51,295 nucleotides of DNA from assembly GCA_049322675.1 (NCBI GenBank), contig JBMORM010000020.1, positions 1-51,295 of the forward strand, in the 5' to 3' direction. The stretch comes from Patescibacteria group bacterium (GTDB lineage: Bacteria; Patescibacteriota; JAHJAL01). The position numbers and the translations under genes were made by a program. Shown piece after piece: positions 9,207-48,604 of the stretch. The notes below the pieces were generated by a model. The model was not told where the DNA came from, searched no databases, and saw only the letters and a list, made by a program, of their open reading frames with translations. Position 1 is the stretch's first letter; each line of letters opens with the position of its first letter.

Positions 9207-9281
9207 CCTGGGATAAAAGAGTAGTAATATCGGTTATATTATGTTATAATACTGGGATTGTTTGAAAAATAAGAATAAAAA

Positions 9282-19044: not shown

Positions 19045-19131
19045 CGGTCAACGCTCTTCTTTTTGATTATAGAAATGTTTATATGGTTTTAGAATATTTT
19101 GAAGATAATTGTAATGTGTTTTATTTGGGAT

Positions 19132-19235
19132 AAAAAGTAAAAAACCTCCGGTTTGGTTGCTGGAGGTTTTTCTTAAGAAAAAATTAATATTTGGGGTGTA
19201 TGATGGGGGCGTTGAGGTTGTTTTGGTGGTAAAAT
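19132..19235 (+). repeat. 104-bp direct repeat, copy 2 (terminator hairpin at 19139..19171)
   Basis: Same sequence as 17843..17946 apart from G>A and C>T. The C>T change converts one stem pair to a G-U wobble. Confidence 0.9.
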
Positions 19236-19266
19236 GAGCGTGTATATTATTTTTTTATAAATCAAT

Positions 19267-20196: not shown

Positions 20197-20204
20197 TAAA
20201 TAAT

Positions 20205-22235: not shown

Positions 22236-22252
22236 TTTTTACTTACATAAGA

Positions 22253-24064: not shown

Positions 24065-24066
24065 CT

Positions 24067-25425: not shown

Positions 25426-25510
25426 AAGGTAGTCAAATCTTTGTTTGACAGTAATTATTTTTTATTTTATTATTAGTCATAGTAGTTATATATAGTTATA
25501 TATATTTTTC

Positions 25511-26173
25511 ATGAGAAATAAACTTTCTAAAAACCAGATGATTTTTTTCAAATTTTTAAAAAACTATATTTCTCGAAATAAATATTCTCCTACATATAGT
25601 GAAATGCTCGATTTGTTATCGGCAGAGGGACTGAGGATAAAAAGTAATAATAGTTTGGCTCAATATTTGAAGGTGCTGGAAAAAAAAGGATTAATTAAAA
25701 ACACTTCTTTGCCAAGGGGTATAAAACTTATAAAGGAAGAAGAAAAACAATGTTGTGCCATTCCTTTTTATGGTAAAGCAAATTGTGGTGAAGCATTAAT
25801 TTTTGCTGAAGATACGGTTAATGATTATATAAATATTTCTAGAAAGTATATTTCCGGTGATAAAAATGATTACTTTTTTGTTGAAGCTGATGGAAATTCG
25901 ATGAATAAGGATGGAATTAATAATGGTGATATGGTTTTGGTTAGAAAGAAAAATAATTATTTAAAGAATAAAAATGTTGTTGTGATAATCAATGGATTGG
26001 CAACAATTAAAAAATATATTGAAAAAGATGGTATAACATTTTTGGTTCCATCTTCAACAAATTCAAAACATAAACCAATAATACTGCATCCTGAAGATGA
26101 TATTAATTTTTGCGGTGAAGTAGAAAAGGTTTTTAGTTTTTCAGATATGGATAGCAAAGGAGGTCGAAGCTAA
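25511..26173 (+). CDS. lexA: LexA-like repressor (winged-helix plus S24 peptidase)
   Basis: The N-terminus LSKNQMIFFKFLKNYISRNKYSPTYSEMLDLL...LKVLEKKGLIK is a LexA DNA-binding domain pattern. The S24 catalytic Ser is in ADGNSM and the Lys is in ATIKKY. The linker is IPFYGKANCGEA. Confidence 0.8.
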   Translation: MRNKLSKNQMIFFKFLKNYISRNKYSPTYSEMLDLLSAEGLRIKSNNSLAQYLKVLEKKGLIKNTSLPRGIKLIKEEEKQCCAIPFYGKANCGEALIFAEDTVNDYINISRKYISGDKNDYFFVEADGNSMNKDGINNGDMVLVRKKNNYLKNKNVVVIINGLATIKKYIEKDGITFLVPSSTNSKHKPIILHPEDDINFCGEVEKVFSFSDMDSKGGRS

Positions 26174-26214
26174 CCTAAGTCTGAATTTATTCGTAAGACA
26201 TCCGAAAGGATTTA

Positions 26215-26514
26215 ATGTTTGGAAAAGATATGGAATATGCATGGTTAAAATTTCCCTCACAAGTATTGTATGCTCCAGAGACAAAAGGGGTATATTTATT
26301 GTCTGAATGGGCGTCTGAAAATAGTATTGTGTATATTGGGAAAGCAGATAGTTTGCATGAGCGACTTAGCCAACATCCAGATCCAAACAATCGTTGTTTG
26401 AATAGAAAAAGTATCAAATACTTTTCCTATGAAGAGTGTAGTAATCCTGACATTCGAGAAAAAGAATTGATACGAAAATATAATCCCGTATGCAATGATT
26501 TGCTAAAGGATTAA
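26215..26514 (+). CDS. small GIY-YIG nuclease-domain protein
   Basis: 99 aa with GVYLL (GIY), VYIGKA (YIG), LHERL (Arg), REKELI (Glu) and YNPVCN (Asn). Confidence 0.7.
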   Translation: MFGKDMEYAWLKFPSQVLYAPETKGVYLLSEWASENSIVYIGKADSLHERLSQHPDPNNRCLNRKSIKYFSYEECSNPDIREKELIRKYNPVCNDLLKD

Positions 26515-26520
26515 GAAAAC

Positions 26521-26555
26521 AGGCCTTTGAAAAAAATCAAAGGCCTCTCTTTTGT
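26521..26555 (+). terminator. intrinsic terminator
   Basis: AGGCCTTTGA-aaaaaa-TCAAAGGCCT 10-bp stem followed by CTCTTTTG. Confidence 0.6.
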
Positions 26556-26591
26556 ATTTATATTGTATATTTTTATTTAGTTATTTGAAAT

Positions 26592-26792
26592 GTGGATAAA
26601 AAAATTATGGAAAATTTAAGTTATTTTCTTTCTGTTGTTGCATCTGTCTTAGGTATTGCAGGTTTTGTCTGGTCTTGGATGAATCATGTCAAAATCAAAA
26701 AAATAAATAATTTTGGTAATTATTTTAGTAATATTCATTCTTCGAGAAATGGAAGAGACGGTATTCATATTGGAGATGATAGAAATGAATAA
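26592..26792 (+). CDS. small single-TM protein, hypothetical
   Basis: 66 aa with the TM segment LSYFLSVVASVLGIAGFVWSW. Its stop overlaps the next ATG (ATGAATAA). Confidence 0.4.
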   Translation: MDKKIMENLSYFLSVVASVLGIAGFVWSWMNHVKIKKINNFGNYFSNIHSSRNGRDGIHIGDDRNE

Positions 26793-27342
26793 AAAGAGTA
26801 GCAAAAAAGTTCAGTATCAAATTGTTTCCGCAAATGATTGGTTAAACAAGATAGGCTGTAAAATTGTCGATGGAAAAATTAGACTTCCGATGAAACATTT
26901 GATTTTTCCCCTTATGAAAGCAAGTGAGGAAATGGAAAAGTATAAAAATTTCAAGCGTTTAAATGAACAAATGAAGTGTATTGATGTGATAGCTTTGAAT
27001 GTGAGACAAGCGGATAATGCATATTTTTTTGCGTGGTCGCAAAGCATATTGGTTAGCAATAAAAAGGAAACGATACCAGAAATATTTCCATGTTATAACT
27101 GTTTTCAAAAGACGATATCGTCAGACAATTTGAGAAAACATTTTTCTTCCAAATTACAGAAACTTAGAGATAAAGTTAGTAGTGAAATAATACATGCTGC
27201 AGAAGCTGGGGTTATTGTTTCGTCAAAACATTTTGGTCTAGTTGAGGAATATTATAATGAATTTATAAGTTTAAATATGTTTTATTTTTCAGGAATAAAA
27301 GATCTTAATGTTTGTTTTTGTAAGGAACATGAAAGGAATTGA
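26785..27342 (+). CDS. hypothetical protein (185 aa), Cys/His-containing
   Basis: ATG at 26785 (MNKKSSKKVQYQ...), translationally coupled to the upstream small ORF. CYNC...CFCKEH is a possible metal site. No recognised family. Confidence 0.55.
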   Translation: MNKKSSKKVQYQIVSANDWLNKIGCKIVDGKIRLPMKHLIFPLMKASEEMEKYKNFKRLNEQMKCIDVIALNVRQADNAYFFAWSQSILVSNKKETIPEIFPCYNCFQKTISSDNLRKHFSSKLQKLRDKVSSEIIHAAEAGVIVSSKHFGLVEEYYNEFISLNMFYFSGIKDLNVCFCKEHERN

Positions 27343-27357
27343 TGTTGTTGTTACTAA

Positions 27358-27389
27358 TAAAACACCAGTAAAAATTTACTGGTGTTTTT
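27358..27389 (+). terminator. intrinsic terminator
   Basis: AACACCAGTAA / TTACTGGTGTT stem followed by a T-run. Confidence 0.6.
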
Positions 27390-27496
27390 AAGATTTTGGA
27401 GGATGTCAAAATTATAGCAAGCTGTAATCTAGCTGGATGTTTTGGTTGATATCGTTTATTATCTCGTTTAACTGATTTTCGCGATATATTGAGATA

Positions 27497-27572
27497 GGTT
27501 GGGTTTCGCCGGAGGTATTTTGTGTTAAGGAAAAATTAATATTGGATCGGTATAATGATGGTGGGTGGGTTA
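27497..27572 (+). repeat. degenerate third copy of the 104-bp island repeat
   Basis: GGTTGGGTTTCGCCGGAGGTATTTTGTGTTAAGGAAAAATTAATATTGGATCGGTATAATGATGGTGGGTGGGTT aligns by eye (roughly 70%) with GGTTTGGTTGCCGGAGGTTTTTCTTAAGAAAAAATTAATATTTGGGGTGTATGATGGGGGCGTT. The left half of the hairpin is missing. Confidence 0.45.
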
Positions 27573-27666
27573 TTATTTCGATAATACAGAATTGAAAAGA
27601 GAATCAAATATTAGGAAATTCAAAATAGTTCAAAATATCGCAATAGAAAATAATAAGTATAAATTT

Positions 27667-28221
27667 ATGAAGAAAGAAATTATAAAGTCGTTAACAAATA
27701 ATTTTGAAAGTTATTCCCACAAGACTGATGGGGGAATATAATTTTGGTTTGCTAGAGATTTGCAGCATTTATTGGGATATTCAAAATGGGATAATTTTTT
27801 GAATGTAATTTTGAAAGCTAAAACAGCTTGTGATATAAGTGGCCATGATATATGCGATCATTTTGCCGACGTCGGGAAAAAGGTCAAATTGGGCTCTGAG
27901 AGCGAAAGGGAGATTGAAGACATTATGTTGACTCGCTATGCGTGTTATTTAATAGCGCAAAATGGCGATCCAAAGAAACAAGAAATTGCTTTTGCTCAAA
28001 ATTATTTTGCCGTGCAAACTAGAAAATATGAGTTAATTGAAAAAAGAATTCTGGATTCAGAAAGATTATCAGCTAGACAAAAATTGGCAATTACCGAATC
28101 TGAATTATCAGGGCTGATATTCGAGAAAACTAAAAATGACAAAAATTTTGGATTAATTCGAAGCAAGGGCGATAAGGCGACGATTGAAAACGGAAGACAA
28201 AAAAACATTAAAAAATGTTAG
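27667..28221 (+). pseudogene. dinD: DNA-damage-inducible protein D (DinD) homolog, interrupted by an in-frame TAA and 3'-truncated
   Basis: ATG at 27667 opens MKKEIIKSLTNNFESYSHKTDGGI. TAA at 27739..27741 follows, and the same frame continues FWFARDLQHLLGYSKWDNFLNVILKAKTACDISGHDICDHF...LTRYACYLIAQNGDPKK, colinear with E. coli DinD. The conserved C-terminal half is absent after ...LIRSKGDKA. Confidence 0.75.
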
Positions 28222-35422: not shown

Positions 35423-36220
35423 TTATCGCAGAGAAAAATAGATGGCGATGATAATCGCGATGATTATTCGATAATAACCGAAGATCGTAAAGCTATGTTG
35501 GGCAATATATTTGATTAGTTTGCTGATAACCAAATAACTGACTAAAAAGGCGGAAATAAAACCGAGACTGAGCCAGATTATTTCTTTTTGGTCAAAATGG
35601 ATATCAGCTTTGAATAGCGAATAGATTGAGGCAATTCCCAAAGTGGGAACGGAGAGGAAAAATGAAAATTCGGTGGCGGTGGGTCGATTGAAACCCAGTA
35701 AAAGAGCGGTAATGATGGTGGCGGCGGAGCGGGAAGTGCCGGGGATCATGCCGAGACATTGAGAAAAACCGACAATGAGTGAATTTTTGAATGAAATTTT
35801 TTCACAAGAGTTGGTAGTGCTTGCTTTGGGTTTTCTTTCGATCAAGATGATAATAATTCCGCCCAATAAAAGACTGGAACCGACGACGGTGGGAGTAAAT
35901 AGATGATCTTTGATCCAGTCACCGAAAAGTAGCCCGAAAAAACCGGCGGGGATGAAAGCGACTATGGTTTTTAGCCACAGATCAATGATAGATCGATTGA
36001 TTTTTTGGTCTTTTTGCCATAGGTAGGGTATTAGACGATTTCGATAAAAGATAATAACAGCCAGGACGGCGCCGAGTTGAATAAATATGTCGAAAGTATT
36101 GGCAAAATCAGAATTGGAAAAAGTGATAAATTGATTGGCTAGGATTAAATGGCCGGTAGATGATATCGGTAAAAATTCAGTGATGCCTTCGATGATGCCT
36201 AAAATGATTGCGATGAACAT
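35423..36220 (-). CDS. uppP: undecaprenyl-diphosphate phosphatase
   Basis: GIIEGITEFLPISSTGHL and PGTSRSAATI motifs. 265 aa, polytopic. Confidence 0.92.
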   Translation of the reverse strand: MFIAIILGIIEGITEFLPISSTGHLILANQFITFSNSDFANTFDIFIQLGAVLAVIIFYRNRLIPYLWQKDQKINRSIIDLWLKTIVAFIPAGFFGLLFGDWIKDHLFTPTVVGSSLLLGGIIIILIERKPKASTTNSCEKISFKNSLIVGFSQCLGMIPGTSRSAATIITALLLGFNRPTATEFSFFLSVPTLGIASIYSLFKADIHFDQKEIIWLSLGFISAFLVSYLVISKLIKYIAQHSFTIFGYYRIIIAIIIAIYFSLR

Positions 36221-36443
36221 AGTTGTAAAAAAGTTTATAAAATTATTGGGTCGAAAGTTAAATTTTTTTTACCGATGGGTTTAGTAACTGGCTATTTTGG
36301 ATATGTTTCAATTATACATTTTTTTAGGAATATATTTTATTGATTATGAAAAAGATTGCGAGTAGAGTAGATTTGTAAGAAGAAAATATGTTTGTTTGGT
36401 TGGAAATTTATTTTCTGATAACGAAAAATATTTTTAGGTTTAC

Positions 36444-36472
36444 AAAACCGCAGGATTGTCTGGCGGTTTTTT
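36444..36472 (+). promoter_or_regulatory. terminator-like hairpin in the 5' leader of the giant gene (possible attenuator)
   Basis: AAAACCGCAG-gattgt-CTGGCGGTTTTTT ends 30 nt before the ATG at 36503. The upstream gene is on the opposite strand, so any plus-strand transcript reaching the hairpin must start within the intergenic region. Confidence 0.4.
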
Positions 36473-36502
36473 CGTAATTAATTATTAATTTTTTGAAATA
36501 AT

Positions 36503-39500
36503 ATGCAAGACTGGTGGCGAAGAAATAAAAAAATTGGGATATTTGTGTTGATTGCGGTTTTGTGTTTGTCTGGTGTATTGCTTGTCTGGTGGGCGAGGGT
36601 CAAAAAGGATAGCCATAAGAATATTAGCGATAGTAGTGAGCGAACAAAGGAATCGGAAATGACGACGGTGGCTCAGCTGGAAATTGTACCGGAAATAAGG
36701 TCGCAGGAGGTGGCATTTAAGTTACTGGAGGAAAACTGGTTAGGAATGACCGAGGGACAGGAAATGTCAGGGGAGCAAGCATTGCAAGCATTAATGTTGG
36801 CGACGACGAGTACTGATGATCTGAATAAGATGTTGTGGTCGGAAGTGATAAAGTCGGAAGCCGGTCAACTGGCGGCAAGCCAGATGTCTGACAGCGACAA
36901 TGTTAAGAAAATGAGTAAAGTTTTGCCGGGGGAGTGGTGGAATGTAGTGGTGCCTCAGCAAAAAAGAATAATTGGTTTACTGACAAGTCGTCTGCGTGAT
37001 GATAGTGATTTACGTCGGGAGTTGGCTGGGATTTTGGTGGGGGAGGAAAAATATTCTTTTTTCTGGGACGGTCAAAAAAAGAAAAATTTTTTGGCGGGTG
37101 TGGTGAAGGGCGATGTGAATTTGGCGGATTATTTTGATGGAGTGCAACTGGAAGAAATAAAAAAACAAATAGCGACTGATTTTAGGGACAATTATAAAGT
37201 TGGAAATGTGTTGGCGCAAAGATTTTTGGTTTTGCCGGAATTAAAAAATAAAAATCAAAGTTCTTTGGTGGCAGTGAAGCTAAAACATGGTGAAGAAATT
37301 TTGGAAGTCCCGATGGATAAAATCCGCTGGCGAACCGGGTCGTTGGTAATGGTGTTGGAACCGTTGCCAGAATTTGCGCCCGGCCAATACAATTTGGAGG
37401 TTGAATTTTTTAATTCGATTACAAATAAGCGGCAGTTGTTTACTCAGGATTTTTCTTGGGGAGTTTTGTCAGTAAATACTGATCAAGATTGGTATTTGGT
37501 TGGGGAAAAAATGAAAATTGATATTGGTATTTTGGATGATCAGGGCAGTCCGATTTGTGATGCTGAAGCAAGTTTGGTAGTTAAAGATGCTCAAGGAAAT
37601 GTGGTAGATAGTTTGCCGGTAACAAATACGGGGGAGTGTAAGGTTCTTCAGCCAGGTCATATTGTCCCCGACTATAATACAGAATATACTGCGGCGAAAG
37701 CGGGAGAATATTTTTTAAATTTAAAAGTAAAGACGAGAAACGGTGAAAGAACAGCTACTTCGTCGATAAGGGTATTGGGTGAAAGTTCGGAATTTTTTCG
37801 GGTGAAGAGAACTTCGGCGACTCGTAATTTTCCTTTTGGAATGACGCCTATGAATTTGGAAGTGGAATTTGGTCGTGATTTTTCCGGTAGGTTGGTGGAG
37901 GTTGTTCCGGCGGATTTTGGACTTGAGCAAATTGGCAATGACGGGGTGGAGGTGACAGAAAATGGACAGAAAAAAATTGTTTGGAAAGTGGAGGCAAATA
38001 CTGGGGATAGGTTGATGTTGGATTATTGGTTTGATGCCCCAAATATTAGTCCGATGTTTTATGTTTTGGGTCCAGTGACTTTGGAAGATGAAGACGGTCG
38101 TATTTTTTCCACGGAAAAAAGAGTTTGGCAGATTGCCAATGATATAACTTGTGCTTGGACAAATGGTAATGCCAATAATAGTTGGAGTGATGCGGGTAAC
38201 TGGTCGGGTTGTGGTGGCAATGTTCCTGGTGTGGGAGCGGGAGTTGATTATGATGTATTATTTCAGCCGGTTGGGGGCGGAGGAAGTGGCAGTGAGTTAA
38301 TAAAAGTAAATACAGATGTGCCGGGAACTTGTGACAGTTCGGGAACTCATGACACACCTTGTCCGGACGGGGATGGACGGTTGGGAATGGGAACAAGCGG
38401 AACAGGTGATGTAGGAGCAGTGGCTCATCCTTCAATAATATATGATGGCGGAGTCTACAAGATGTGGTATACCGGTCGGGATGGAAGTGGTGTAACCAGA
38501 ATATTTTATGCTTATTCAAATGATGGTTCGACCTGGACTAAATATGACAATACGGTTGAAACGCCATCAAATACAACTGGTACCAATGGACGTATTCCGC
38601 TCGGTGTTTCCGGTAGCGGTGATGATACCGGGGTATGGATTCCCCATGTGATAAATGACGGGGGTACTTACAAAATGTGGTACGCCGGTTCTTCCGCCAG
38701 CAGTGATTGGCGGATATATATGGCCACTTCAACAGATGGCGGGTTAACTTGGACAAAAGTAGATAACTCATTGCCGGCCGATTCGGATACCACTTCCACC
38801 AATGGCCGCGTACCGTTGGGAACGGCTGGAAAAGGTGACAGACAGACTGTTCATGGTGCATCGGTGATGAATGATGGCGGTACATACAAGATGTGGTATA
38901 TGGCACAAGACACTTCTTATGTTTTTAGAATATATTATGCGACTTCGCCGGATGGTTTGACCTGGACTAAATACGACAATACCATTCCGGCTGATTCGAA
39001 TACAAGTTCTACCAATGGTCGGGTGCCGCCTGGTTTGGCAGGAAGTGGAGACGATACACACGTCGCTGCGCCCAACGTCTATTTTGATGGTGGTACGTAC
39101 AAGATGTGGTATCTCGGCGGAAATGGAGATCCATTTTTCTATGGTTATCGGATTTATTACGCGACTTCATCCGATGGTTTGGTTTGGACAAAATTTGATA
39201 ATAGTGTGCCGGCTGATAGCGATACTTCTTCTACCAATTGGCGGGTGGCACATGGAACGGATGGCAAGGGTGATGATTACTCAATAGATAATATGTGTGT
39301 GGTGGTGGATGGTACTGATATTCGTATGTACTATGGTGGTAATGATGGCAGTTACACTAGAATATATTCGGCAAATAATATTTCGACTGGTGGTAGTCCG
39401 GATGTTAGCTTGGATACGAATGTAAATATTGGTTCGTTGGAAATGTCAGGAGGATATGGTGGCACGGTTTATTTGAATAGCCGGACGGTAAATATTGGTG

Positions 39501-42500
39501 GTACTTTTAATCATGCGGAAGGAAATCTCGATGCCGGCACAAGTACAATTATTTTTGATGGCACGACAAGCGGTTCACTAATTGTATCCGGTGGATCCGA
39601 GCTTTATAATCTGGAATTTAATGGTGGCGGGGGTGATTGGACTTTGTATGATCCATTGACGGTCAACGGTACTTTGACGACAGTGAATGGTGAGTTAATA
39701 AAAAATTCGCAAAATATTATTGCCAAAGGAACGGTTAGCTTAGCCAATAATACGTTTACTGCCGGTTCCGGTGGTGAGTTCAGGTTGAACGGAGATTTTA
39801 ATCTAAATAGCGGTAATAATAATTTGGGGCATCTGATTGTCGGCGCCAGCCCGGACACGATTACTTTGACTAGTGATTTGATGGCGACGGATTTATCAAT
39901 TGCTGATTGGGATAGTTTGATAACTGATGGTTTTGATATCAGTGTTGATGATTTTGTAACAATCTATGGTGAGGCCACTTTGGATGCTACGGCCGGAACA
40001 GGTGGTGATACAAACATCTCGGTTGGGGGAAACTGGACCAATTATAGTATTTTTACGGCTGATACCAGTACCGTGACTTTCACGGCGACGGATACTGGTA
40101 ATACAATTAATTCCGGCTGGTGGGGAGAATTTAATAACGTGGTGTTTGATGGTGTTGGTGGGGAGTGGATTTTGCAGGATGATATGGTGATCAACGGGGA
40201 TTTGACTATCACAAATGGCACTTTGGATATCAATGGTCACAATTTGACAGTATCTGGAACATTTACCAATAATGGCAGGTTAAAATTGAATGGTTATGAG
40301 GGAGTATCGTTAACGAATGATACCGATTCGGGAACGATCGAATACTATGGGGTGGGGGTTGATAATAATCTCGTAACCGGAAATGACTACTATAATCTAT
40401 TGATTAGTGGGGCCAGTGATCGTTGGGCGACCGGAGAAGTACATATTAATAATGATTTGATAATCACTGCCGGCTCGCTGAATATAGCTTGGAATAATTT
40501 AACGATTACCGGAAATCTGGATAATACCTCTGGTTCCAGTGGTATTTACAATGTATCTCGGGTTTTATTTAATGCTCCGGATAAAAATAATACTATCCGT
40601 TTATCAGGCGCGCAATTGTATGATGTGGTTTTCAGTGAAGAACGGGGGGAGTGGATTTTGTTGGATGATATGTATGTGAATCGGGCTTTTGATATCAAAA
40701 GTGGATTATTCAATGTTGGTAATAATGTGTTGACGGTCAGACAAGGATTTTATATTCGACAAGCGGGGAGATTTCAGAAGGGAGAATCATCGATAGTTCG
40801 GTTTTCTCCGGATGATGATCGAGAGTGGGGGGATGAAACGTATGAAGGGCAGGATTTGGGAGTGGTGGAAGTTACTGGGGGCACGGGTGTTAAAAATTTG
40901 ATTGTTAGATGGAATGTAGCCAAATGTACCTCTTTGTTTGTCGATACGGGTCATACCGTAAAGTTGTTGCAAACAGAATTGCGCTTGACTGGTGAAGGAA
41001 CGCCAATATCCGGTTTGGGCACGGTGGATACCTGGTCGTATGGGGAAAGTACAGTAAGTTATAATGGAGGACAAAATACTAATGTGCTGACATCGGGCGC
41101 AGTTAATAGATATGATAGTTTAAATATTGATTCGTCGACTGGTTTATTAATGAAAATTGGTGAAGATGATTTACGTAGCTCTGTTATTGATACGGATAAT
41201 GGTTATGCCTATTTTGGTACAGCTATTTCTTCTCCGGCGATGATTATCAAAGTGCGTTTGTCAGATTTGACCAGAGTAGCGACGCTGATGATGGATGATG
41301 CAGGGGAGTTGGGGGCGGCGGCGATAGATTTGGCCAATCACAAAGCTTATTTTGTCTATAGTAGTCCAGGAATTCAAATAATAAAAATCGATTTGGATAC
41401 TTTCACTATTGAGAGCAAGTTGGCACTGACCAATGTAGGGACACCATCTCGAAGTGCCGAGTTTACGCGAACGGCGACGATCGATAATGACGGTGGCTAT
41501 TTGTATATTGGTAGCACTCAGTCGAGTGATGGTTATCCAGCTATGCTAGTCAAGGTCAGATTGAGTGATTTTACTGTTGAAGATGACTATACTTTTAACT
41601 CGGGTTACAATGGAGTGACGTGCGGCGTGATTGATCCGGCTAATGATTTTGGTTATTTTGCTATGCGAACCAATCCGGGGACGATAGTCAAAATCAAGTT
41701 ATCAGATATGTCACATGAGGAAGATTTGACTTTGAGTGCGGGGGAAAATGCGCCGATGGCAGCGATAATCGACACTTCCGGTGGATATGCTTATTTTGGT
41801 ACTACCAGTAATAATGAGGGAGGTAGTGGAAATAGAATAGTGAAAATTCGACTATCTGATTTTTCAGAAATAGAAAGTCTGGTTACATCGGAGTCAGAAT
41901 ACGATACTGCGGTTTTTGATCCAATAAACAATATGGGCTATTTTGGTACTTCGACATATGTAAATTATGTGGTGCAGGTTGATTTGGCCAATATGACGAA
42001 ATTGAATTCCGCGTTTATAACCAATGATGCTGGTATTACAACTTCAATAATTGATTCGACTGGAGGATTTGCGTATTTTGGTACAAGTGCTTCAGCTGGA
42101 CAGATTTATAAAATTAACCTTTATACTTCTTTGCCTGGCGTAAGTACGAGTTTATTGAAGGAAAATAATGTAATTCCGGGAACTTGTGATAGTTCGGGAG
42201 CTCATGATACTCCCTGTCCGGATGGTGATGGACGTTTGGGGTTGGGTACTAGTGGCATGGGTGATGAAAAGGCGGTTGATATGCCAGCGGTGATATATGA
42301 TGGTGGGGTATATAAAATGTGGTATACGGGGAAGGATGATGCTGGTGGAGTTAGAATATTTTATGCTTATTCAACAGATGGATTGACATGGACTAAGTAT
42401 GATAATTCGATTGAAGCACCATCAAATACTACCGGTACCAATGGCCGGATACCTTGGGGAGAAGCTGGTAGTGGTGATGCTACGGGGGTATGGATTGCCA

Positions 42501-45500
42501 ATGTAATCAATGATAGTGGTACTTACAAAATGTGGTATGCGGGTTCTTCGGCTGATAGTGATTGGCGGATTTATATGGCTACATCCACTGATGGTGGTTT
42601 AACCTGGACAAAAGTAGATAATTCTTTGCCGGTTGATTCTGATACTACATCGACAAATGGCAGAATTCCTTTGGGAACTGCAGACAAGGGCGATGAACAA
42701 ACAGTTCATGGAGCATCAGTTATAAATGATGGTGGAACATATAAGATGTGGTATATGGCCCAAGATACTTCATTTCATTTTAGGATTTATTATGCCACTT
42801 CACCCGATGGATTGACCTGGACAAAGTATGATAATGATATTCCGGATGATTCGGATACTGATTCTACCAATGGTCGAGTACCTTTGGGCTTGACTGGTGG
42901 AGATATGAGATATGTAGCAGCTCCTCATGTGTACAAAGATGGTAGTAATTATCGGATGTGGTATTTGGGTGGTTCAGATTTTGATTATGTTTATCGGATG
43001 TATTACGTCACTTCACCTGATGGATTGGTGTGGACGAAATTGGATAATAGTGTGCCAGCCAATACTGATACGTCTTCGACTAATTGGCGGGTAGCTTATG
43101 GAACTGATGGTCGGGGTGATTATTTTGGAGTTGGAAATATGTCAGCAGTGATAGTCGGTAATTCTCTAAAAATGTATTATGGCGGAAGTGGGGCGGGTGG
43201 TTCGAGGATATATTTGGCAACAGCTGATGTAAACACGCCAATGTCGATAGATAGTCATCTGACTTTGATGCCGGGTGAGGACAGTTTTGGTGCTGAAGTG
43301 ATTGATACGGTTAATGGTTATGCTTATTATGGTACACGTACAAAACCGGGAGTGATTGTCAAAGTCCGACTGTCTGATTTTAGCCGGGTGGATTCGATTA
43401 CGCTGGACGATGGAGAATGGAATTTGGAAACAGCGGTGATTGATCAGACAGCTGGTTATGCTTATTTTGCGACTAATACAAATATTGGAAAAATAATTAA
43501 AATTCGTTTATCCGATTTTACCAAGGTAGCAACATTGACTTTAAATCCTGGGGAGGATTCGTTTGAGTCTTCAGTAATTGATACTGTTGATGGTTACGCA
43601 TATTTCGGTACGGCCGGATATTCTGACTGGATTGTCAAAATCAGATTGTCAGATTTTAGTCGGGTGGGTGCGATTTCGACCGATGAGGATGAAAATACCT
43701 CAGCAACGATTGATACAACTCGTGGTTATGCTTATTTTACGAATACTGCAGATCAAGGAAAAATAAGGAAACTAAGGTTAAGCGATTTTACGATTGAAGA
43801 TACGCTTGAATTAGATGATGGGGAAAATCGACCGATTAAATCGGGAATTGATTTATCAAACAATGTTTTGTATATCGGAACTAGCTACAATGATAGAAAA
43901 ATTATTAAAGTAGATCTGTCGACTTTTACGGAAGTGGGTACGATGGACTCCGATTCGGATATCATCAGTGGTGTAGCAATAGATACAATCGATGGTTATG
44001 GATATTTTGTTTTGACGGAAGTACCGGGACGGATGTTAAAAGTAAGGTTATCTGACTTTTCTAAAGTGGGAACGACAACTATGAATAATGGCGCAAATTG
44101 GACTGATTCGATTCTGATGGGTGATGATTTTATTTATATGTCAGCATCAACTAGTCCTAGTATCGTGATACGTGTTCCAAAAAATGGTTTAAACACTTTT
44201 TCTACCGGAGCAGGAGAAAGTTTGATAATTGATAAAAACTTAACAATTGAGGGTTATAACGTCGATTGGGATACTAATGATACGGCGATTACGTTGAAAG
44301 GAAATTTCTATATTGATAGTCTGGCTCGTTGGCAAAAGTCGCCCACGCAGACATTTACCTGGTCGCCGGAGGGAACCAAGACTTTTACTGATCTGACCTA
44401 TGATCTACAGGATATTGGTTTTGTCGATGAAACGGGTGGGCATAGTGAGATCGTATTGTTGACGCCAATTCATTTGACTACTTTGCATATTGCCAACGGC
44501 CACACGTTTAATTTAAATGGTTATGATTTTTCGATTGATTCGACCTACACCAGTGAGGGCAAGTTGAAGTTGTTTGGTTCGGAAACGGTGACGGGTTTTG
44601 TCAATGATCTGGATTCGGGTAATGTGGAATATTATGGTACTGGCACATATAGTAGTTTACATACTGGCAATGATTATTATGATTTGATTTTCAATGGCGG
44701 TGGCGGTAGTTTTAGTTTGGATAATGATCTGGACGCGGAACATGATTTGACGGTGACAGCGGGAACTTTGTTGTCGGATGGTTTCGAAATGGATATGTCC
44801 GGTACAGTATCGATTGCAACGGCCGGGGTATTAAATGCTAGTGATGGTACAGATGGTGTTAGTCTGATCCGGGTGCAGAATAATTGGTCGAATGCCGGTA
44901 GTTTCGTGGCCGGTGGTTCGACGGTAGAATTGACTGGTGAAAATCAGTTGATAACCGGGGCGACGACTTTTTATAATCTGCTGAAAACAGAAATGGTGGA
45001 TAATGCGACCGATGAAGTTTTGACGTTTGGATCCGGACAGTTTCAGAAAATCAGCAATTTACTGACATTTGATGGACGCGATGGCGATGATATGATTTGG
45101 CTTCGGTCATCCGTACCGGGAGGTCAGGCATTTATTGAATTTGACGGGACGGGGGTGGCGATTGGAACAGTGAAGTGGTTGGATATTCAGGATCATGCCG
45201 TGATAAATAGTAACGGCGCGGCGGTAGTGTTTCCGGTCAATCCCGCTAATTCTATTAATAGTGGCAATAACTCCAATTGGTTTGAGCTCAGTACGGCTTT
45301 GGCGGAGTCGGCGACTGTTACCGCGACAGTTCCATCGTTGCTTAGTTTTGCTATCAATCCAGTGGCAAGTGGGCAGAATATAAATGGCGAATTGACAAAT
45401 ATTAATACTACGACTGCGGGAGTTGATTTTGGAATATTCGCGGGGGCGGCGGATAAAATTGGGGCACATGATTTGGTGGTTTCGACCAATGGGGGAGGCG

Positions 45501-45853
45501 GATATGTGGTAACTTTGCAGTATGATCATCAATTGATGTCATCAGCCGCCAATGTTCCCAATTTTCCAGGTTCAAATAGTAGTCCAATTTTTTGGTCCAC
45601 ACCTCCAGGCAGTGGTACAGAAGGATATTTTGGTTATACCACCAATGATATTTCCTTGGGTGGTATGCCAATTGATCGTTTTGTGGCTGATAAATGGTCG
45701 GGATTTAGTCCGATTCCGGAAGAGGTAGTTTATTATAATGGTGCAGTAGCTGATCAATTGACGCGAGTGGGTTATCGTTTGCAGATTACTAACCAGCAGG
45801 CGGCGGGTTTTTATGCTAATACTTTGAGATATATTTGTACGAGTACTTATTGA
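36503..45853 (+). CDS. giant (3116 aa) membrane-anchored multi-propeller / beta-helix-like surface protein
   Basis: A single uninterrupted ORF.
- N-terminal TM anchor (IGIFVLIAVLCLSGVLLVWWA) and an Ig/MG-like beta-sandwich region.
- Two ~350-aa modules of five blades with GGxYKMWY...RIYYATSxDGLxWTK (Asp-box SxDGxxW).
- Two sets of seven ~55-aa YAYFGT...VK(I/V)RLSDF repeats.
- Two long regions of xLTVxGxLTNxG-type beta-helix-like repeats.
- A ~200-aa distinct C-terminal domain. Confidence 0.9.
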   Translation: MQDWWRRNKKIGIFVLIAVLCLSGVLLVWWARVKKDSHKNISDSSERTKESEMTTVAQLEIVPEIRSQEVAFKLLEENWLGMTEGQEMSGEQALQALMLATTSTDDLNKMLWSEVIKSEAGQLAASQMSDSDNVKKMSKVLPGEWWNVVVPQQKRIIGLLTSRLRDDSDLRRELAGILVGEEKYSFFWDGQKKKNFLAGVVKGDVNLADYFDGVQLEEIKKQIATDFRDNYKVGNVLAQRFLVLPELKNKNQSSLVAVKLKHGEEILEVPMDKIRWRTGSLVMVLEPLPEFAPGQYNLEVEFFNSITNKRQLFTQDFSWGVLSVNTDQDWYLVGEKMKIDIGILDDQGSPICDAEASLVVKDAQGNVVDSLPVTNTGECKVLQPGHIVPDYNTEYTAAKAGEYFLNLKVKTRNGERTATSSIRVLGESSEFFRVKRTSATRNFPFGMTPMNLEVEFGRDFSGRLVEVVPADFGLEQIGNDGVEVTENGQKKIVWKVEANTGDRLMLDYWFDAPNISPMFYVLGPVTLEDEDGRIFSTEKRVWQIANDITCAWTNGNANNSWSDAGNWSGCGGNVPGVGAGVDYDVLFQPVGGGGSGSELIKVNTDVPGTCDSSGTHDTPCPDGDGRLGMGTSGTGDVGAVAHPSIIYDGGVYKMWYTGRDGSGVTRIFYAYSNDGSTWTKYDNTVETPSNTTGTNGRIPLGVSGSGDDTGVWIPHVINDGGTYKMWYAGSSASSDWRIYMATSTDGGLTWTKVDNSLPADSDTTSTNGRVPLGTAGKGDRQTVHGASVMNDGGTYKMWYMAQDTSYVFRIYYATSPDGLTWTKYDNTIPADSNTSSTNGRVPPGLAGSGDDTHVAAPNVYFDGGTYKMWYLGGNGDPFFYGYRIYYATSSDGLVWTKFDNSVPADSDTSSTNWRVAHGTDGKGDDYSIDNMCVVVDGTDIRMYYGGNDGSYTRIYSANNISTGGSPDVSLDTNVNIGSLEMSGGYGGTVYLNSRTVNIGGTFNHAEGNLDAGTSTIIFDGTTSGSLIVSGGSELYNLEFNGGGGDWTLYDPLTVNGTLTTVNGELIKNSQNIIAKGTVSLANNTFTAGSGGEFRLNGDFNLNSGNNNLGHLIVGASPDTITLTSDLMATDLSIADWDSLITDGFDISVDDFVTIYGEATLDATAGTGGDTNISVGGNWTNYSIFTADTSTVTFTATDTGNTINSGWWGEFNNVVFDGVGGEWILQDDMVINGDLTITNGTLDINGHNLTVSGTFTNNGRLKLNGYEGVSLTNDTDSGTIEYYGVGVDNNLVTGNDYYNLLISGASDRWATGEVHINNDLIITAGSLNIAWNNLTITGNLDNTSGSSGIYNVSRVLFNAPDKNNTIRLSGAQLYDVVFSEERGEWILLDDMYVNRAFDIKSGLFNVGNNVLTVRQGFYIRQAGRFQKGESSIVRFSPDDDREWGDETYEGQDLGVVEVTGGTGVKNLIVRWNVAKCTSLFVDTGHTVKLLQTELRLTGEGTPISGLGTVDTWSYGESTVSYNGGQNTNVLTSGAVNRYDSLNIDSSTGLLMKIGEDDLRSSVIDTDNGYAYFGTAISSPAMIIKVRLSDLTRVATLMMDDAGELGAAAIDLANHKAYFVYSSPGIQIIKIDLDTFTIESKLALTNVGTPSRSAEFTRTATIDNDGGYLYIGSTQSSDGYPAMLVKVRLSDFTVEDDYTFNSGYNGVTCGVIDPANDFGYFAMRTNPGTIVKIKLSDMSHEEDLTLSAGENAPMAAIIDTSGGYAYFGTTSNNEGGSGNRIVKIRLSDFSEIESLVTSESEYDTAVFDPINNMGYFGTSTYVNYVVQVDLANMTKLNSAFITNDAGITTSIIDSTGGFAYFGTSASAGQIYKINLYTSLPGVSTSLLKENNVIPGTCDSSGAHDTPCPDGDGRLGLGTSGMGDEKAVDMPAVIYDGGVYKMWYTGKDDAGGVRIFYAYSTDGLTWTKYDNSIEAPSNTTGTNGRIPWGEAGSGDATGVWIANVINDSGTYKMWYAGSSADSDWRIYMATSTDGGLTWTKVDNSLPVDSDTTSTNGRIPLGTADKGDEQTVHGASVINDGGTYKMWYMAQDTSFHFRIYYATSPDGLTWTKYDNDIPDDSDTDSTNGRVPLGLTGGDMRYVAAPHVYKDGSNYRMWYLGGSDFDYVYRMYYVTSPDGLVWTKLDNSVPANTDTSSTNWRVAYGTDGRGDYFGVGNMSAVIVGNSLKMYYGGSGAGGSRIYLATADVNTPMSIDSHLTLMPGEDSFGAEVIDTVNGYAYYGTRTKPGVIVKVRLSDFSRVDSITLDDGEWNLETAVIDQTAGYAYFATNTNIGKIIKIRLSDFTKVATLTLNPGEDSFESSVIDTVDGYAYFGTAGYSDWIVKIRLSDFSRVGAISTDEDENTSATIDTTRGYAYFTNTADQGKIRKLRLSDFTIEDTLELDDGENRPIKSGIDLSNNVLYIGTSYNDRKIIKVDLSTFTEVGTMDSDSDIISGVAIDTIDGYGYFVLTEVPGRMLKVRLSDFSKVGTTTMNNGANWTDSILMGDDFIYMSASTSPSIVIRVPKNGLNTFSTGAGESLIIDKNLTIEGYNVDWDTNDTAITLKGNFYIDSLARWQKSPTQTFTWSPEGTKTFTDLTYDLQDIGFVDETGGHSEIVLLTPIHLTTLHIANGHTFNLNGYDFSIDSTYTSEGKLKLFGSETVTGFVNDLDSGNVEYYGTGTYSSLHTGNDYYDLIFNGGGGSFSLDNDLDAEHDLTVTAGTLLSDGFEMDMSGTVSIATAGVLNASDGTDGVSLIRVQNNWSNAGSFVAGGSTVELTGENQLITGATTFYNLLKTEMVDNATDEVLTFGSGQFQKISNLLTFDGRDGDDMIWLRSSVPGGQAFIEFDGTGVAIGTVKWLDIQDHAVINSNGAAVVFPVNPANSINSGNNSNWFELSTALAESATVTATVPSLLSFAINPVASGQNINGELTNINTTTAGVDFGIFAGAADKIGAHDLVVSTNGGGGYVVTLQYDHQLMSSAANVPNFPGSNSSPIFWSTPPGSGTEGYFGYTTNDISLGGMPIDRFVADKWSGFSPIPEEVVYYNGAVADQLTRVGYRLQITNQQAAGFYANTLRYICTSTY
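38321..39375 (+). repeat. intragenic duplicate A: five-blade Asp-box propeller module
   Basis: PGTCDSSGTHDTPCPDGDGRLG...MYYGGNDGSYTRIYSA is about 80% identical in protein (by eye) to the module at 42176..43225, with many synonymous DNA differences. Confidence 0.85.
41175..42125 (+). repeat. seven tandem YAYFGT...RLSDF blades (set 1)
   Basis: Seven ~50-60-aa units, for example IDTDNGYAYFGTAISSPAMIIKVRLSDLTRV and IDTSGGYAYFGTTSNNEGGSGNRIVKIRLSDFSEI. Confidence 0.8.
42176..43225 (+). repeat. intragenic duplicate B: five-blade Asp-box propeller module
   Basis: PGTCDSSGAHDTPCPDGDGRLG...MYYGGSGAGGSRIYLA lies 3855 bp (1285 codons, in frame) downstream of duplicate A. Confidence 0.85.
43290..44190 (+). 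repeat. seven tandem YAYFGT...RLSDF blades (set 2)
   Basis: Units such as IDTVNGYAYYGTRTKPGVIVKVRLSDFSRV, IDQTAGYAYFATNTNIGKIIKIRLSDFTKV and IDTVDGYAYFGTAGYSDWIVKIRLSDFSRV. Confidence 0.8.
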
Positions 45854-45970
45854 TAAAATTTGCAAACTTGTTGTTAGATTTAGGGAAGTGATATTGAAAG
45901 TGTTAACTAATTAATTTTTAAAAAGAAAGCGTAAGGAGGAAATATAGTTTCGTTTTTATTGGAGGTGAAA

Positions 45971-48604
45971 ATGAAAATAAGAAGTTGGGTGGTTTTGTTT
46001 TTGGTGATTAGTTTGGTTGGTTGTGAGGTGCCAAAAACGTCTCAGGATTTGTCAATCGATCAAACGACCACCTCACAAATCAGTACACCGGTTCCGCCGC
46101 CTCCGCCGGTGGCGGCACAGGTTAGTAATTTTTCTTCCAATGGTGATTTGATTGCCGATTGGTATTGGTTGCGTGGTAAATCGGAGCAGAAATACGCCGA
46201 GTGGGTTTTGGACAATGTGCCGACTGGTCAAGATAGTGTTGAGCTAGCATTGACCGCATTGGCGACAAATACTTTTAATGGTGGCAAGGGATTTGAGGCG
46301 GCATTCAAATTGTATTACGGAAATGTGGCTGATAAGGCTGATTTGTCAAAATTACGATTTGTTGAGGTAGTGTTGCCAAATGTGTCAACCTTGGATGACC
46401 CCGTCGGTTATACTTGTCTAGGAACGGCGGTTTTGGATTTGAGCGGTTTGGATTTTGGTTCCCGACTTTATCTGAAGGCGATGAGAATGGATGTAAATGG
46501 TAATCATTTGGCTTTCAATGCGACTACTATTGTGACGGTTGGTGGGAGTAGCGGTGATCAAAACAGTGAAGGGCAAAGTGGAGAAGGCAATCAAGGCGAA
46601 AATGGACAGACGGAACAGATATTGAATCCGGATGATGACAATGATTTGGTACCAAATAATAATGAAACTTTTTATGGCACTCAGTCCAACAATCCCGACA
46701 CGGATGGCGATGGGATTATTGATGGCAAGGATTTGTCTTCGATGATTAATCCGTCCGAGCCAACTTGGAATGATCTACAAAAGAAGGGAATGGTGCGGAT
46801 TGAGCAGCCGGCTTTGGCGTATGGTTTGGATGGTTGGGTGGATGTTTATGAAAGATATTTTTCAGCTTGGCCGCCGCGAACCTGGATGAAAAAGATTGCT
46901 TACAAAGAGGATGATGGAACGAAAAAAAGCACAATGGATGAGGATCATTATAAAAAGTCATTGAATAAGATCTTTAATGATCAAAAATTTACTTGTTATC
47001 AAGTGGAGAACAAAACAGCGGCGGATTTTGCTTCCGGTACGGCGGAAAAGGTTCATGATTTGGACGCGGAAACGAGTTTGATATATTCCGAAAGCTTGTT
47101 TGTGCCAAAGAGATATGAATTTTATTATGATTATTTGTCGGACTATCAATTGGCGTATTTGAAAAATACTGAGGAAATAAAATATCCCAGTGAAAGTGAA
47201 TATTTCAAATATTTGTTGTATCCGTTGAATATTTATACTGGCAAGGAACAGACTATCGCTTTGCAGTTCAAAGACAATCAGATGTATGCAGATTTGTATG
47301 ATAACAACGATAATGATTATAAATTGCCGGCTTTTTTGTACACCTTTTACAATAACAACAATTTTGACGCTGATGATGGCAGTAATGTGGCTTATTATAA
47401 GGATAATTTGGCAATGGCTAGTTTGATTGATGGAAATAATTTAGAGGTGAGGATTACTTTGCCGGCGGATTTGGCGACCAATAGTAGTAGTTATTTGAAA
47501 ATAACTCCAGTGTGGGTGATAAAGAAAAATGGCAAGACGGATTATAAGCCGATGAATTTAAATTGGGATTTGACCGGGATTGTGCGAGATGTGGTGATTT
47601 CCAAGGCGGAAAATAATAATACTACTTTGTCTTTGGAATATAAAAATTTTGAGGGTTTGAATAATACACCGGTGGATGCGGGATGGGTTAAAACGCACTC
47701 CGGATCTGCTGATTATCAAAGTCGAACGGAAACTATGAAAATGTTGACCAAAGATCCGAATGCTCCAGTCAATGAGCGATACAATGATTTGGAGGTAGGT
47801 ATTACGGCGACCAATTATGTCGAGAAGGAAATGGGAATTGCCGGAAATGTTTATTCGGTAATTGAGGCTGTGACTGTAAAGTCCAATAAAGTAAAAGAAA
47901 TCACAGATTTGCCAGCGGATCACTGGGCGCGGCAATCAAATTATACCGGTCCGATTGCAATTTTTGCTGTTGCTCAGGGAGTGGCGTCGGTGGCGACCAA
48001 CGGTCAGCAGGCTTGGACGGCTTACAAGAATGGCGAAAAAATGAATGTGGCTTATTATTCAGCTAAAGCGGTTTTAGGTGGGACCAATGCTGTGGCCAAT
48101 GTCGTCAAAGTGACGGAAAATACGATTGGATATGCAGGCAAAGCTGGTCGTTTAGCCAAGTTGACGACCAAAAAAGCCGGAGTAATCTTGGCGGTGGCTA
48201 CTGGAACGGTAGAAGCGAGTTATAATATTTATAAATATAATTCTACCAATGATCCGATCCTCAAGTCATCTTATGCGGAAAACGTGGGAGCCAATGTCTT
48301 GGATACTGGCATTTCGGTTGCAGCTGTGTTTTCGCCGCATGTGCTGGCGGTACAGGCAACTTGGATGATTGAAATTGAAATATATGGTTTGATTTTTGGT
48401 GAGGATTTCGCTTATCAGGTGGCCAAATCACCGGGTCAAGCAGCAATGTTTTTGTCGGAATATTTTTTCACCGGAGATGTGCCATCGCAAATGTCCAAGA
48501 CGGCTTACACTGACTGTCGGGATGATTTGTTGGAATGGATTGAAAATGATAATGCGGTGCAATTACCCTATATGGCGTTTTTTGTTGATCCGGATGTTTC
48601 CTAG
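45971..48604 (+). CDS. large lipoprotein (877 aa) with TSP3-like Ca-binding repeats and a hydrophobic Ala/Gly/Val-rich C-terminal region
   Basis: ATG at 45971 follows GGAGGTG. The lipobox is MKIRSWVVLFLVISLVGC, followed by a PPPPP linker. It carries NPDDDNDLVPNNNE...NPDTDGDGIIDGKD. The C-terminal ~250 aa contain AIFAVAQGVASVA, GVILAVATGTVEA and ISVAAVFSPHVLAVQATWMIEIEIYGLIFG. Confidence 0.8.
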   Translation: MKIRSWVVLFLVISLVGCEVPKTSQDLSIDQTTTSQISTPVPPPPPVAAQVSNFSSNGDLIADWYWLRGKSEQKYAEWVLDNVPTGQDSVELALTALATNTFNGGKGFEAAFKLYYGNVADKADLSKLRFVEVVLPNVSTLDDPVGYTCLGTAVLDLSGLDFGSRLYLKAMRMDVNGNHLAFNATTIVTVGGSSGDQNSEGQSGEGNQGENGQTEQILNPDDDNDLVPNNNETFYGTQSNNPDTDGDGIIDGKDLSSMINPSEPTWNDLQKKGMVRIEQPALAYGLDGWVDVYERYFSAWPPRTWMKKIAYKEDDGTKKSTMDEDHYKKSLNKIFNDQKFTCYQVENKTAADFASGTAEKVHDLDAETSLIYSESLFVPKRYEFYYDYLSDYQLAYLKNTEEIKYPSESEYFKYLLYPLNIYTGKEQTIALQFKDNQMYADLYDNNDNDYKLPAFLYTFYNNNNFDADDGSNVAYYKDNLAMASLIDGNNLEVRITLPADLATNSSSYLKITPVWVIKKNGKTDYKPMNLNWDLTGIVRDVVISKAENNNTTLSLEYKNFEGLNNTPVDAGWVKTHSGSADYQSRTETMKMLTKDPNAPVNERYNDLEVGITATNYVEKEMGIAGNVYSVIEAVTVKSNKVKEITDLPADHWARQSNYTGPIAIFAVAQGVASVATNGQQAWTAYKNGEKMNVAYYSAKAVLGGTNAVANVVKVTENTIGYAGKAGRLAKLTTKKAGVILAVATGTVEASYNIYKYNSTNDPILKSSYAENVGANVLDTGISVAAVFSPHVLAVQATWMIEIEIYGLIFGEDFAYQVAKSPGQAAMFLSEYFFTGDVPSQMSKTAYTDCRDDLLEWIENDNAVQLPYMAFFVDPDVS

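Follow-up and report, generated by a model that had tools for sequence, protein, structure and literature searches.

What would a bacterium of the candidate phyla radiation (CPR) do with a protein of 3,116 residues, and how would a protein of that size be held at its surface? The question is raised by a single open reading frame (ORF; 36503..45853, + strand, with an ATG start) in the 51,295-nt stretch of Patescibacteria DNA analyzed here, which we call the window. A first-pass annotation, made from the sequence alone, described the product as a membrane-anchored giant protein built on a duplicated propeller/β-helix supermodule and ending in a unique C-terminal domain, and suggested that it is a cell-surface adhesin. 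We consider the adhesin role plausible. As for the C-terminal domain, it is not unique: it is probably a divergent member of the Pam-pilin C-terminal-domain superfamily, related copies of which end other giant proteins as well as small pilins. The new element is therefore that giant modular proteins end in what looks like a Pam-pilin-type module, and that one of them, the protein of the window, is present or absent between near-identical CPR strains. Our preferred reading, which we hold tentatively and at a little short of an even chance, is that it is an exported surface protein of its CPR bacterium, a pilus-linked host-binding adhesin or "mega-pilin."

Pam pili were described only in 2026, with the filaments of the CPR bacterium Mycosynbacter amalyticus solved (Troman et al., bioRxiv 2026, doi 10.64898/2026.03.03.709456). 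Among Pam pilins, conservation is reported to be strongest in the donated linker and in the site that binds it. PamT, which consists of the C-terminal domain only, is proposed to be the tip. Further proposed components are chaperones anchored in the membrane (PamC/D) and an anchor protein (PamR). The system is reported to be exclusive to CPR bacteria. Its authors offer no explanation of host binding, the mode of which is not known to them, and giant proteins go unmentioned in their report (doi 10.64898/2026.03.03.709456).

The relationship of the window protein to these pilins emerges from its family. A three-sequence profile of the C-terminal module (aa 2936-3116; 45308..45850, + strand) retrieved 13 small proteins, and all 14 members of the C-terminal family alignment match the NCBIfam model NF058581 (CPR_Pam_pilin_C), for which the curated cutoff is 55 bits. 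The scores form a graded series. At the top is P0017, with 161 bits (and 179 bits to the PamT model, NF058579), followed by a small ORF beside the giant protein P0002 (L003:24388-25461) with 75.4 bits, P0002 itself with 56.1 bits, which is above the cutoff, and the giant protein P0003 with 44.4 bits over a full-length domain. The nearest relatives of the window protein, P0009, P0014, and P0012, score 29-31 bits over the full 148-position model, and the window protein scores 23.4 bits (E 5e-5) over its final 36 residues only. Since this last match is subthreshold and confined to those residues, homology to Pam pilins is transitive, and so is the link to Pam pili that it suggests. When the profile of the window subfamily was aligned with the PamT-like P0017 using hhalign, the two matched over 125 columns with a probability of 86.9% and an E value of 4e-6.

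Structural modeling is consistent with this assignment. With the 14-sequence alignment as input, AlphaFold2 (AF2) modeled aa ~2940-3116 as a truncated immunoglobulin (Ig)-like domain with a predicted local distance difference test (pLDDT) score of ~90. The top Foldseek match of this domain is the TasA fiber 8aur (E 4.7e-4, probability 0.99), followed by FimA, FimF, the pilin domain of PapG, and CsuA/B. All of these are donor-strand-complemented subunits. The 14 family members matched nothing in Pfam, and searches against PDB sequence profiles also returned nothing. Two other identities were considered for the tail and dropped: a WxL domain, which found no Pfam support among the 14 members and was superseded by the NF058581 match, and membership of the TasA/camelysin family (PF12389), for which no match was obtained with any of the 14 members even when E values up to 10 were allowed, the match to 8aur being at the level of the fold only.

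A feature shared by all family members is a strand, L-[ST]-F-x-I, located ~15-20 residues before the modeled domain. In the window protein, this strand is SLLSFAINP (aa 2946-2954), which AF2 predicts as a β-strand (pLDDT ~97) folded onto the domain in cis and which, by its linker position, is a candidate donor strand. Because a conserved strand precedes the domain at that position, the giant protein would be laid out as a Pam pilin whose N-terminal domain (NTD) has been swapped for ~2,900 aa. The nine-strand β-sandwich NTD of Pam pilins is not present, and unrelated modules occupy its place.

The same tail recurs in other genomes, on giant proteins and on pilin-sized ones of 355-396 aa found in shared clusters, and searches with a domain hidden Markov model (HMM) found it always at the extreme C terminus (in P0002, P0003, and the others retrieved). 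It ends a third giant protein upstream of P0002 and three small pilin-sized ORFs of 361-396 aa flanking P0002 (lengths of stop-to-stop frames). In L003/L004, two giant genes thus stand together with three small pilin-like ORFs, and a Peptidase_S26 gene follows downstream at a distance of a few genes. In L087/L088 (1-29035), three consecutive giant genes carry the tail, their stop-to-stop frames being at least 2865, 3748, and 2582 aa long; among them, P0152 combines an A-type propeller (see below) and LamG/DUF2341 domains with a canonical cleavable signal peptide (VMA/NE). Clustering of giant and small proteins that share a tail of the strand-exchange type is what co-assembly would predict. LamG/DUF2341 domains are abundant in the bodies of the three L087/L088 proteins, whose genes are succeeded by a fourth giant gene.

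The second part of the finding, strain variability, comes from a comparison with a related metagenome-assembled genome (MAG). The iPGM and BacA proteins encoded in the window are 97% identical to those of "Patescibacteria group bacterium isolate CTOTU29514," a GTDB representative, which identifies the host as a member of the Patescibacteria (CPR) and bears out the small-genome bacterium that had been proposed from the sequence. We compared the window with a 10.6-kb contig of this MAG (L085), which is colinear with it to the left and right of the giant gene, with flanks that are ~93% identical and DNA identities ranging from 81 to 95%. In blastn alignments, positions 9476-10579 of the contig correspond to 36472-35372 of the window, and positions 6214-9434 to 49150-45959. 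The segment in between, 36473..45958 (9,486 bp), comprises the whole giant gene with short flanks. The related MAG has 41 bp in its place, so that the bacA-proximal leader there leads straight into an 883-aa lipoprotein gene. The giant gene is therefore an accessory cassette, strain-variable and dispensable. The junctions of the indel show no clean microhomology or target-site duplication, both of which were looked for, and insertion can therefore not be told from deletion.

How might such a protein work? The giant protein has one hydrophobic segment by Kyte-Doolittle analysis (~aa 9-34; 36527..36604, + strand; RRNKK-IGIFVLIAVLCLSGVLLVWWA-RVKKD) and none elsewhere, which agrees with the N-terminal anchor described previously, although it may equally be a long signal peptide as a Sec signal-anchor. 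In our preferred reading, export would proceed through Sec via this segment, and the C-terminal module would then couple by donor-strand exchange to Pam-type subunits encoded elsewhere, or to its own copies. The giant protein would thereby come to lie at the far end of a filament or close to it, as FimH and PapG do on chaperone-usher pili. Its four pseudo-symmetric β-propellers, two with a five-blade GH130/GH43 fold that are probably noncatalytic and two with seven blades from an unnamed family, would be displayed on β-rich spacers and bind repeated structures on the host surface, most likely glycans. Strains that gain or lose the gene would, on this view, change in host range or adhesion. The general plausibility of such an adhesion mechanism is supported by a Saccharibacterium (Southlakia), in which envelope proteins with glycan-binding domains are reported to be essential for epibiotic growth (PMC10633639).

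Several points weigh against this reading. With a length of ~21 residues and no canonical A-x-A site, the hydrophobic stretch could be a permanent anchor, which would fit poorly with a position at the tip of a pilus. At 23.4 bits, the match of the window protein to NF058581 falls far short of the 55-bit cutoff, and it involves the last 36 residues only. The template modeling (TM) scores of the Foldseek matches of the C-terminal domain are low, 0.29-0.33, although they are normalized over a query that includes 100 disordered residues. The 51-kb window contains no second gene with the C-terminal domain and nothing recognizable as a Pam chaperone or PamR, and Pam pili are reported mainly in Saccharimonadia and Microgenomatia (doi 10.64898/2026.03.03.709456). 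As for the propellers, the model of the five-blade module is of only moderate confidence (pLDDT 62).

The rival that survives best is a stand-alone fibrillar adhesin, the N-terminal helix of which would stay in the membrane while the rest projects tens of nanometers from the cell, with a tail that works independently of any pilus. The role of the C-terminal Ig-like domain would then be limited to that of a distal domain complemented by its own strand, or to a homotypic contact. We regard this as possible but doubtful. It would explain why the single 21-residue segment, flanked by RRNKK and RVKKD, looks like a signal-anchor, and it is in keeping with the lack of Pam genes within 51 kb, with the occurrence of P0004, which has the conserved head described below but not the C-terminal domain, and with the AF2 model, in which LLSFAIN folds onto the domain in cis. 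This last point is offset by the fact that AF2 monomer models routinely self-complement donor strands. In addition, P0152 carries the same tail behind a cleavable signal peptide and would need another means of attachment, the tail co-occurs with small pilin-like genes in other genomes, and it is homologous to a domain known for strand acceptance in filaments (doi 10.64898/2026.03.03.709456).

The structural data suggest a second rival, a matrix or envelope structural protein whose TasA-like tail polymerizes into a biofilm or S-layer-like scaffold, to which we assign a low likelihood. Besides the TasA fiber being the top Foldseek match, TapA has a macroglobulin-like domain and the giant protein has an MG2-like head, and TasA homologues have been reported in Patescibacteria (PMC9245690). 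However, the specific sequence family of the tail is Pam pilin, a Pfam TasA/Peptidase_M73 match is missing from all 14 members even at E 10, and absence from a near-identical strain would be unusual for a core envelope component.

The third rival concerns the five-blade propellers, which had been described as GH43/GH130-like and as putatively carbohydrate-binding or -hydrolyzing. Propeller A1 (aa 594-960; 38282..39382, + strand) consists of five blades of 71-72 aa, with an Asp-box-like S-x-D-G-x-T-W motif in blades 1-4, and propeller A2 (aa 1881-2240; 42143..43222, + strand) consists of five blades of the same length and is 75% identical to A1. The AF2 model of propeller A shows five four-stranded blades, with a predicted TM score (pTM) of 0.70. 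When this model was searched with Foldseek, glycoside hydrolase (GH) families GH130, GH43, GH159, GH117, and GH32 were retrieved with E values of 8e-11 to 1e-7, a probability of 1.0, and TM-scores of 0.5-0.65, while a nine-sequence profile run against the PDB matched GH117 at E 1e-7, and GH130 entries too. The modeled A modules thus have the GH130/GH43/GH117 propeller fold predicted from the sequence.

Whether this fold might make the protein a surface carbohydrate-active enzyme, with five-blade modules acting as GH130/GH43-type hydrolases or phosphorylases on host cell-wall glycans, is a separate matter, and we consider it improbable. In its favor are the fold and the GH117 profile match, weak HMM matches to GH130 and BNR_2, and the name "predicted GH43/DUF377 family glycosyl hydrolase" given by JGI to the relative P0030. 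Yet all single-sequence family HMM matches are below their cutoffs (Pfam Glyco_hydro_130, 17.5 vs. 26 bits; BNR_2, ~24-25 vs. 31.4 bits; NCBIfam β-1,2-mannobiose phosphorylase, 37.9 vs. 450 bits). We then mapped the catalytic positions from one HMMER alignment to GH117 and from GH43/GH32 motifs. In these enzyme families, the catalytic acids immediately precede the innermost strand in certain blades. The inner-strand positions read AHP/WIP/HGA/AAP/DNM in A1 and DMP/WIA/HGA/AAP/GNM in A2, so that the residue before the inner strand is H/I/G/A/N and M/I/G/A/N, respectively, none of which is acidic. The position is conserved neither in the family consensus nor between A1 and A2, which are otherwise 75% identical. 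Moreover, the five blades within a propeller are 40-57% identical to one another by self-BLAST, unlike the blades of catalytic propellers, which have diverged from one another. Three features are retained in every blade, both in this protein and in its relatives: a G-x-G-D loop, a T-N-G-R-x-P loop, and the Asp-box-like S-x-D-G-x-T-W. Because the catalytic positions are nonacidic and the loops are conserved blade by blade, binding is favored over catalysis: the A propeller, with its five-fold pseudo-symmetry, resembles a module for multivalent binding more closely than it does an enzyme, and the hydrolytic role proposed earlier is unlikely.

Finally, that the ORF is an assembly chimera or collapsed repeat, a possibility raised when the protein was first described, is very improbable: the gene is missing from the related MAG and an identical protein is not on record elsewhere, but its reading frame is unbroken over 9.35 kb, its longest exact direct repeat is 22 nt, its repeat copies are 72-75% identical in DNA, with A1 and A2, themselves 73% identical, at a saturated synonymous divergence (dS ~1.5) and a nonsynonymous-to-synonymous ratio (dN/dS) of 0.11, its GC content is the same as that of its flanks, as is in essence its very unusual GC skew (+0.31 in the gene vs. 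+0.34 in the window), and the leader beside it is the one also found in the related MAG. The giant ORF is real, and its start is well defined, the stop-free frame opening just two codons upstream of the ATG. An exact-protein look-up found nothing, nor did an exact 40-mer search of genome contigs, searches with an N-terminal query against genome contigs and against metagenome contigs, or a phmmer search of the PDB with the whole giant protein.

Self-BLAST and blade listings confirmed the sequence of modules listed in the first-pass annotation, but the view of this sequence as a duplicated supermodule needs correction: with A for five-blade propellers, B for seven-blade propellers, and BH for the repeat regions, the order is A-BH-B-A-B-BH. 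Duplication holds for the A propellers, which are nearest to each other (75% identity, vs. ≤55% to any other protein). It does not hold for the B propellers, which are 34% identical to each other vs. 40-47% identical to propellers in other organisms.

These B propellers, B1 (aa 1536-1880; 41108..42142, + strand) and B2 (aa 2241-2585; 43223..44257, + strand), do have seven repeats, in line with the seven-blade YAYFGT/RLSDF propellers described earlier; these putative blades are ~46-50 aa long and carry the motifs GYAYFGT and VKVRLSDF. B1 has a weak match to Pfam Lactonase (E 0.003), and across 23 relatives of the B propeller no Pfam family was matched. Against the B profile, the only match was a marginal one to the YWTD propellers of LRP2 (E 7.5e-4), and a YWTD/LDL-receptor class B propeller was rejected because there are seven repeats, not six, and because that match is marginal. 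By their sequences, the B modules belong to an unnamed 46-residue-repeat family that spans many phyla. An exhaustive search with aa 1917-3116 retrieved 5,732 proteins at E<1e-3, 772 of them at E<1e-30, whereas a word-indexed search with the whole protein gave 3 relatives, so that propeller families were badly under-reported by the latter. Among the best 150 of the 5,732 proteins, 108 have B-type modules only and 36 have A-type modules only, both types being combined in the query alone. B-type modules at 30-40% identity occur in Chloroflexota, Planctomycetota, Acidobacteriota, Omnitrophota, Bathyarchaeota, and Peregrinibacteria, and in the 23 relatives examined they adjoin DUF11, CARDB, LamG, Big_3_5, and dockerin domains. 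The 46-residue-repeat propeller is also seen, at 30-47% identity, in large proteins (L089-L110, P0024-P0171) that sometimes have arrays of two or three propellers.

Between and after the propellers lie two G/N/T-rich repeat regions. Region 1 (aa 961-1535; 39383..41107, + strand) is made of units of ~165-177 aa and is β-solenoid-like by composition, and region 2, which includes an end-cap (aa 2586-2935; 44258..45307, + strand; …LRSSVPGGQAF…NSGNNSNWF), is locally 30-49% identical to it. Repeat units of ~175 aa are shared with the giant proteins P0002, P0003, P0036, P0037, and P0145, and the end-cap motif is also found in P0002 and P0016. The repeats noted earlier are thus present by self-BLAST, whereas their designation as β-helix, although a reasonable guess, drew no Pfam or PDB match, either as sequence or as a 10-sequence profile, and no clear coil periodicity was found when a period of ~22 aa was sought.

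Toward the N terminus, aa 35-279 (36605..37339, + strand) form a region for which no relatives were detected; it has no Pfam match and is not shared with P0002-P0004. It is followed by a conserved head (aa 280-552; 37340..38158, + strand), which is 29-33% identical to that of P0002 (4742 aa), P0003 (3762 aa), P0004 (2042 aa), and the fragments P0018-P0022, one of which is named Patescibacteria. The head comprises an MG2-like β-sandwich with two invariant Cys, then a second β-sandwich-like unit ending in R-x-W-Q-I-A-x-D. The match of the window protein to Pfam MG2 (28.5 bits, E 2e-6) is below the gathering threshold of 32.8. However, MG2 is the recurrent best subthreshold match, found in 8 of 9 head homologues, which is consistent with the Ig/MG-like region of the first-pass annotation. 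WxLIP_HBD (PF11797) was matched weakly (best 1.3e-4) in 5 of the 9 head homologues and not in the window protein. We dropped a Cys-Gln thioester, for which the invariant I-C-D-A and W-Q-I-A motifs had been considered, since a second invariant Cys lies 27 residues on and the order of the motifs does not fit. Because of this second Cys, a disulfide is the simpler explanation, and the sequence pattern suggests that the two invariant Cys form one. P0002 (L003 10001-24229) opens with an HTH_17/MerR-like domain ahead of its extracellular modules. Either its start has been mis-called, or this giant surface protein has an unusual cytoplasmic head that binds DNA.

The genes around the giant gene are of ordinary cellular kinds (bacA, an ABC exporter, PEBP, a β-CASP RNase [RNase J], iPGM, and tRNAs). 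The giant gene and the divergent bacA are separated by a 280-nt leader or intergenic region (36221..36502, + strand), which has a conserved counterpart in the related MAG. At its end, 27 nt before the ATG of the giant gene, stands a bulged hairpin (CCGCAGG…CTGGCGG) followed by T6, and a single sigma70-like match is found at 36214-36243. A riboswitch or attenuator in this leader was considered and dropped since there is no Rfam match, the fold z-score is weak (-2.3), and a terminator scan was negative. The giant gene has no obvious Shine-Dalgarno sequence, unlike the lipoprotein gene downstream, which has GGAGG.

This downstream gene (45959..48604, + strand; 881 aa, with a probable ATG at 45971) is probably co-transcribed with the giant gene and encodes a lipoprotein with an LVGC lipobox, a TSP3-like Ca-binding motif, DTDGDGIIDGKD, and a weak CglD-like match. 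It is not a conserved partner of the giant gene, since it is present without it in the related MAG. More generally, conserved partner genes were sought and not found: the neighbors of the giant genes in L001-L004 share only the TSP3 motif with those in the window. The DNA of the lipoprotein gene is 81% identical to its copy in the related MAG, vs. 90-95% for adjacent genes, and its product looks like a fast-evolving surface protein.

The rest of the window offers some further observations. Its GC skew is extreme throughout (1-51295), with a mean of +0.34 and values of +0.22 to +0.38 for genes on either strand, and the related MAG has the same extreme skew. Typical bacterial skews are far weaker. 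Since the skew is alike for genes on both strands, it would reflect the replication strand or a mutation bias rather than transcription. A low-GC island (GC 0.28-0.33) at ~18200-28000 encodes a KilA-N protein, DUF5655, a fused HsdR_N/N6_Mtase/Eco57I-type methylase, an AAA_15/AbiEii-like ATPase, HsdS, and a LexA-like S24 repressor, and is probably a mobile restriction/defense island. Cell-wall and glycan genes in the window encode a glucosaminidase-domain protein (170-748), a polysaccharide deacetylase (12100-12819), and a GT2 glycosyltransferase (15757-16659). The listed GTG start of the iPGM ORF (843-2552) is overlapped by a tRNA-Met (828-901), and because the Pfam match of iPGM begins at residue 37, the actual start probably lies beyond the 3' end of the tRNA.

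To our knowledge, the Patescibacteria cultivated so far all live attached to other microbes. Giant, strain-variable proteins with a Pam-type module would offer a concrete and testable candidate for the host-specificity determinant of a pilus. A broader proposal, which we put forward as a possibility that is more doubtful than likely, is that the Pam-type C-terminal module is a general plug for loading very large, interchangeable binding proteins onto donor-strand-exchange filaments; as part of the same proposal, mega-pilins would range from ~2,500 to >6,000 aa, and the window would carry one of the strain-specific cassettes. If true, mega-pilins would supply the host-recognition function left open by the Pam pilus paper, the gain and loss of the giant gene between near-identical strains would be explained, and donor-strand exchange would extend to subunits that exceed all known pilins tenfold in size. 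The propellers would also provide targets for ligand discovery, namely a noncatalytic-looking branch of the GH130/GH43 fold and the unnamed 46-residue-repeat family across many phyla. The data show the ORF with its modules, the five-blade propeller fold, the fold class and family ties of the C-terminal domain, the CPR origin, and the presence or absence of the gene between strains; export topology, donor-strand coupling, ligand binding, and the role in host adhesion are what we infer.

The window protein can be compared with several known systems. With Pam pilins (PamA/PamB/PamE/PamT; NF058581, NF058579), it shares a CPR host, a ~150-aa truncated-Ig domain at the C terminus, a conserved β-strand in the position of the donated linker, and a putative N-terminal export signal. 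It differs in having ~2,900 aa of head, propellers, and repeats where Pam pilins have a ~9-strand β-sandwich NTD, in its score below the family cutoff, in the lack of a pam operon nearby, and in an N terminus that may be an uncleaved anchor. TasA/TapA fibers of Bacillus and archaeal AbpA are the systems of the best structural match (8aur) and, likewise, of usher-free donor-strand complementation, but there is no match at the level of sequence family, and TasA is a single-domain protein that donates its N-terminal strand. GH130/GH43/GH117/GH32 enzymes share the five-blade fold (TM 0.5-0.65, E down to 8e-11) and the blade pattern Y-x-M-W-Y … S-x-D-G-x-x-W; here, in contrast, the blades are near-identical, catalytic acids are not conserved, HMM scores are below threshold, and the module sits twice in one giant surface protein. 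Very large modular extracellular proteins of host-attached bacteria, with a proposed role in glycan recognition, are also known from the giant genes of Omnitrophota (bioRxiv 10.1101/2023.11.21.568195) and from Southlakia (PMC10633639), but these have other domain content, and the parts of the two sources drawn on here report none with a pilin-type C-terminal module. A parallel in overall design is found in the tip adhesins FimH and PapG, which also join an N-terminal receptor-binding part to a C-terminal strand-accepting pilin domain. While those adhesins are ~300 aa long, with one lectin domain, and belong to diderm hosts with an usher, the window protein is ten times larger, is of monoderm type, and keeps a candidate donor strand of its own.

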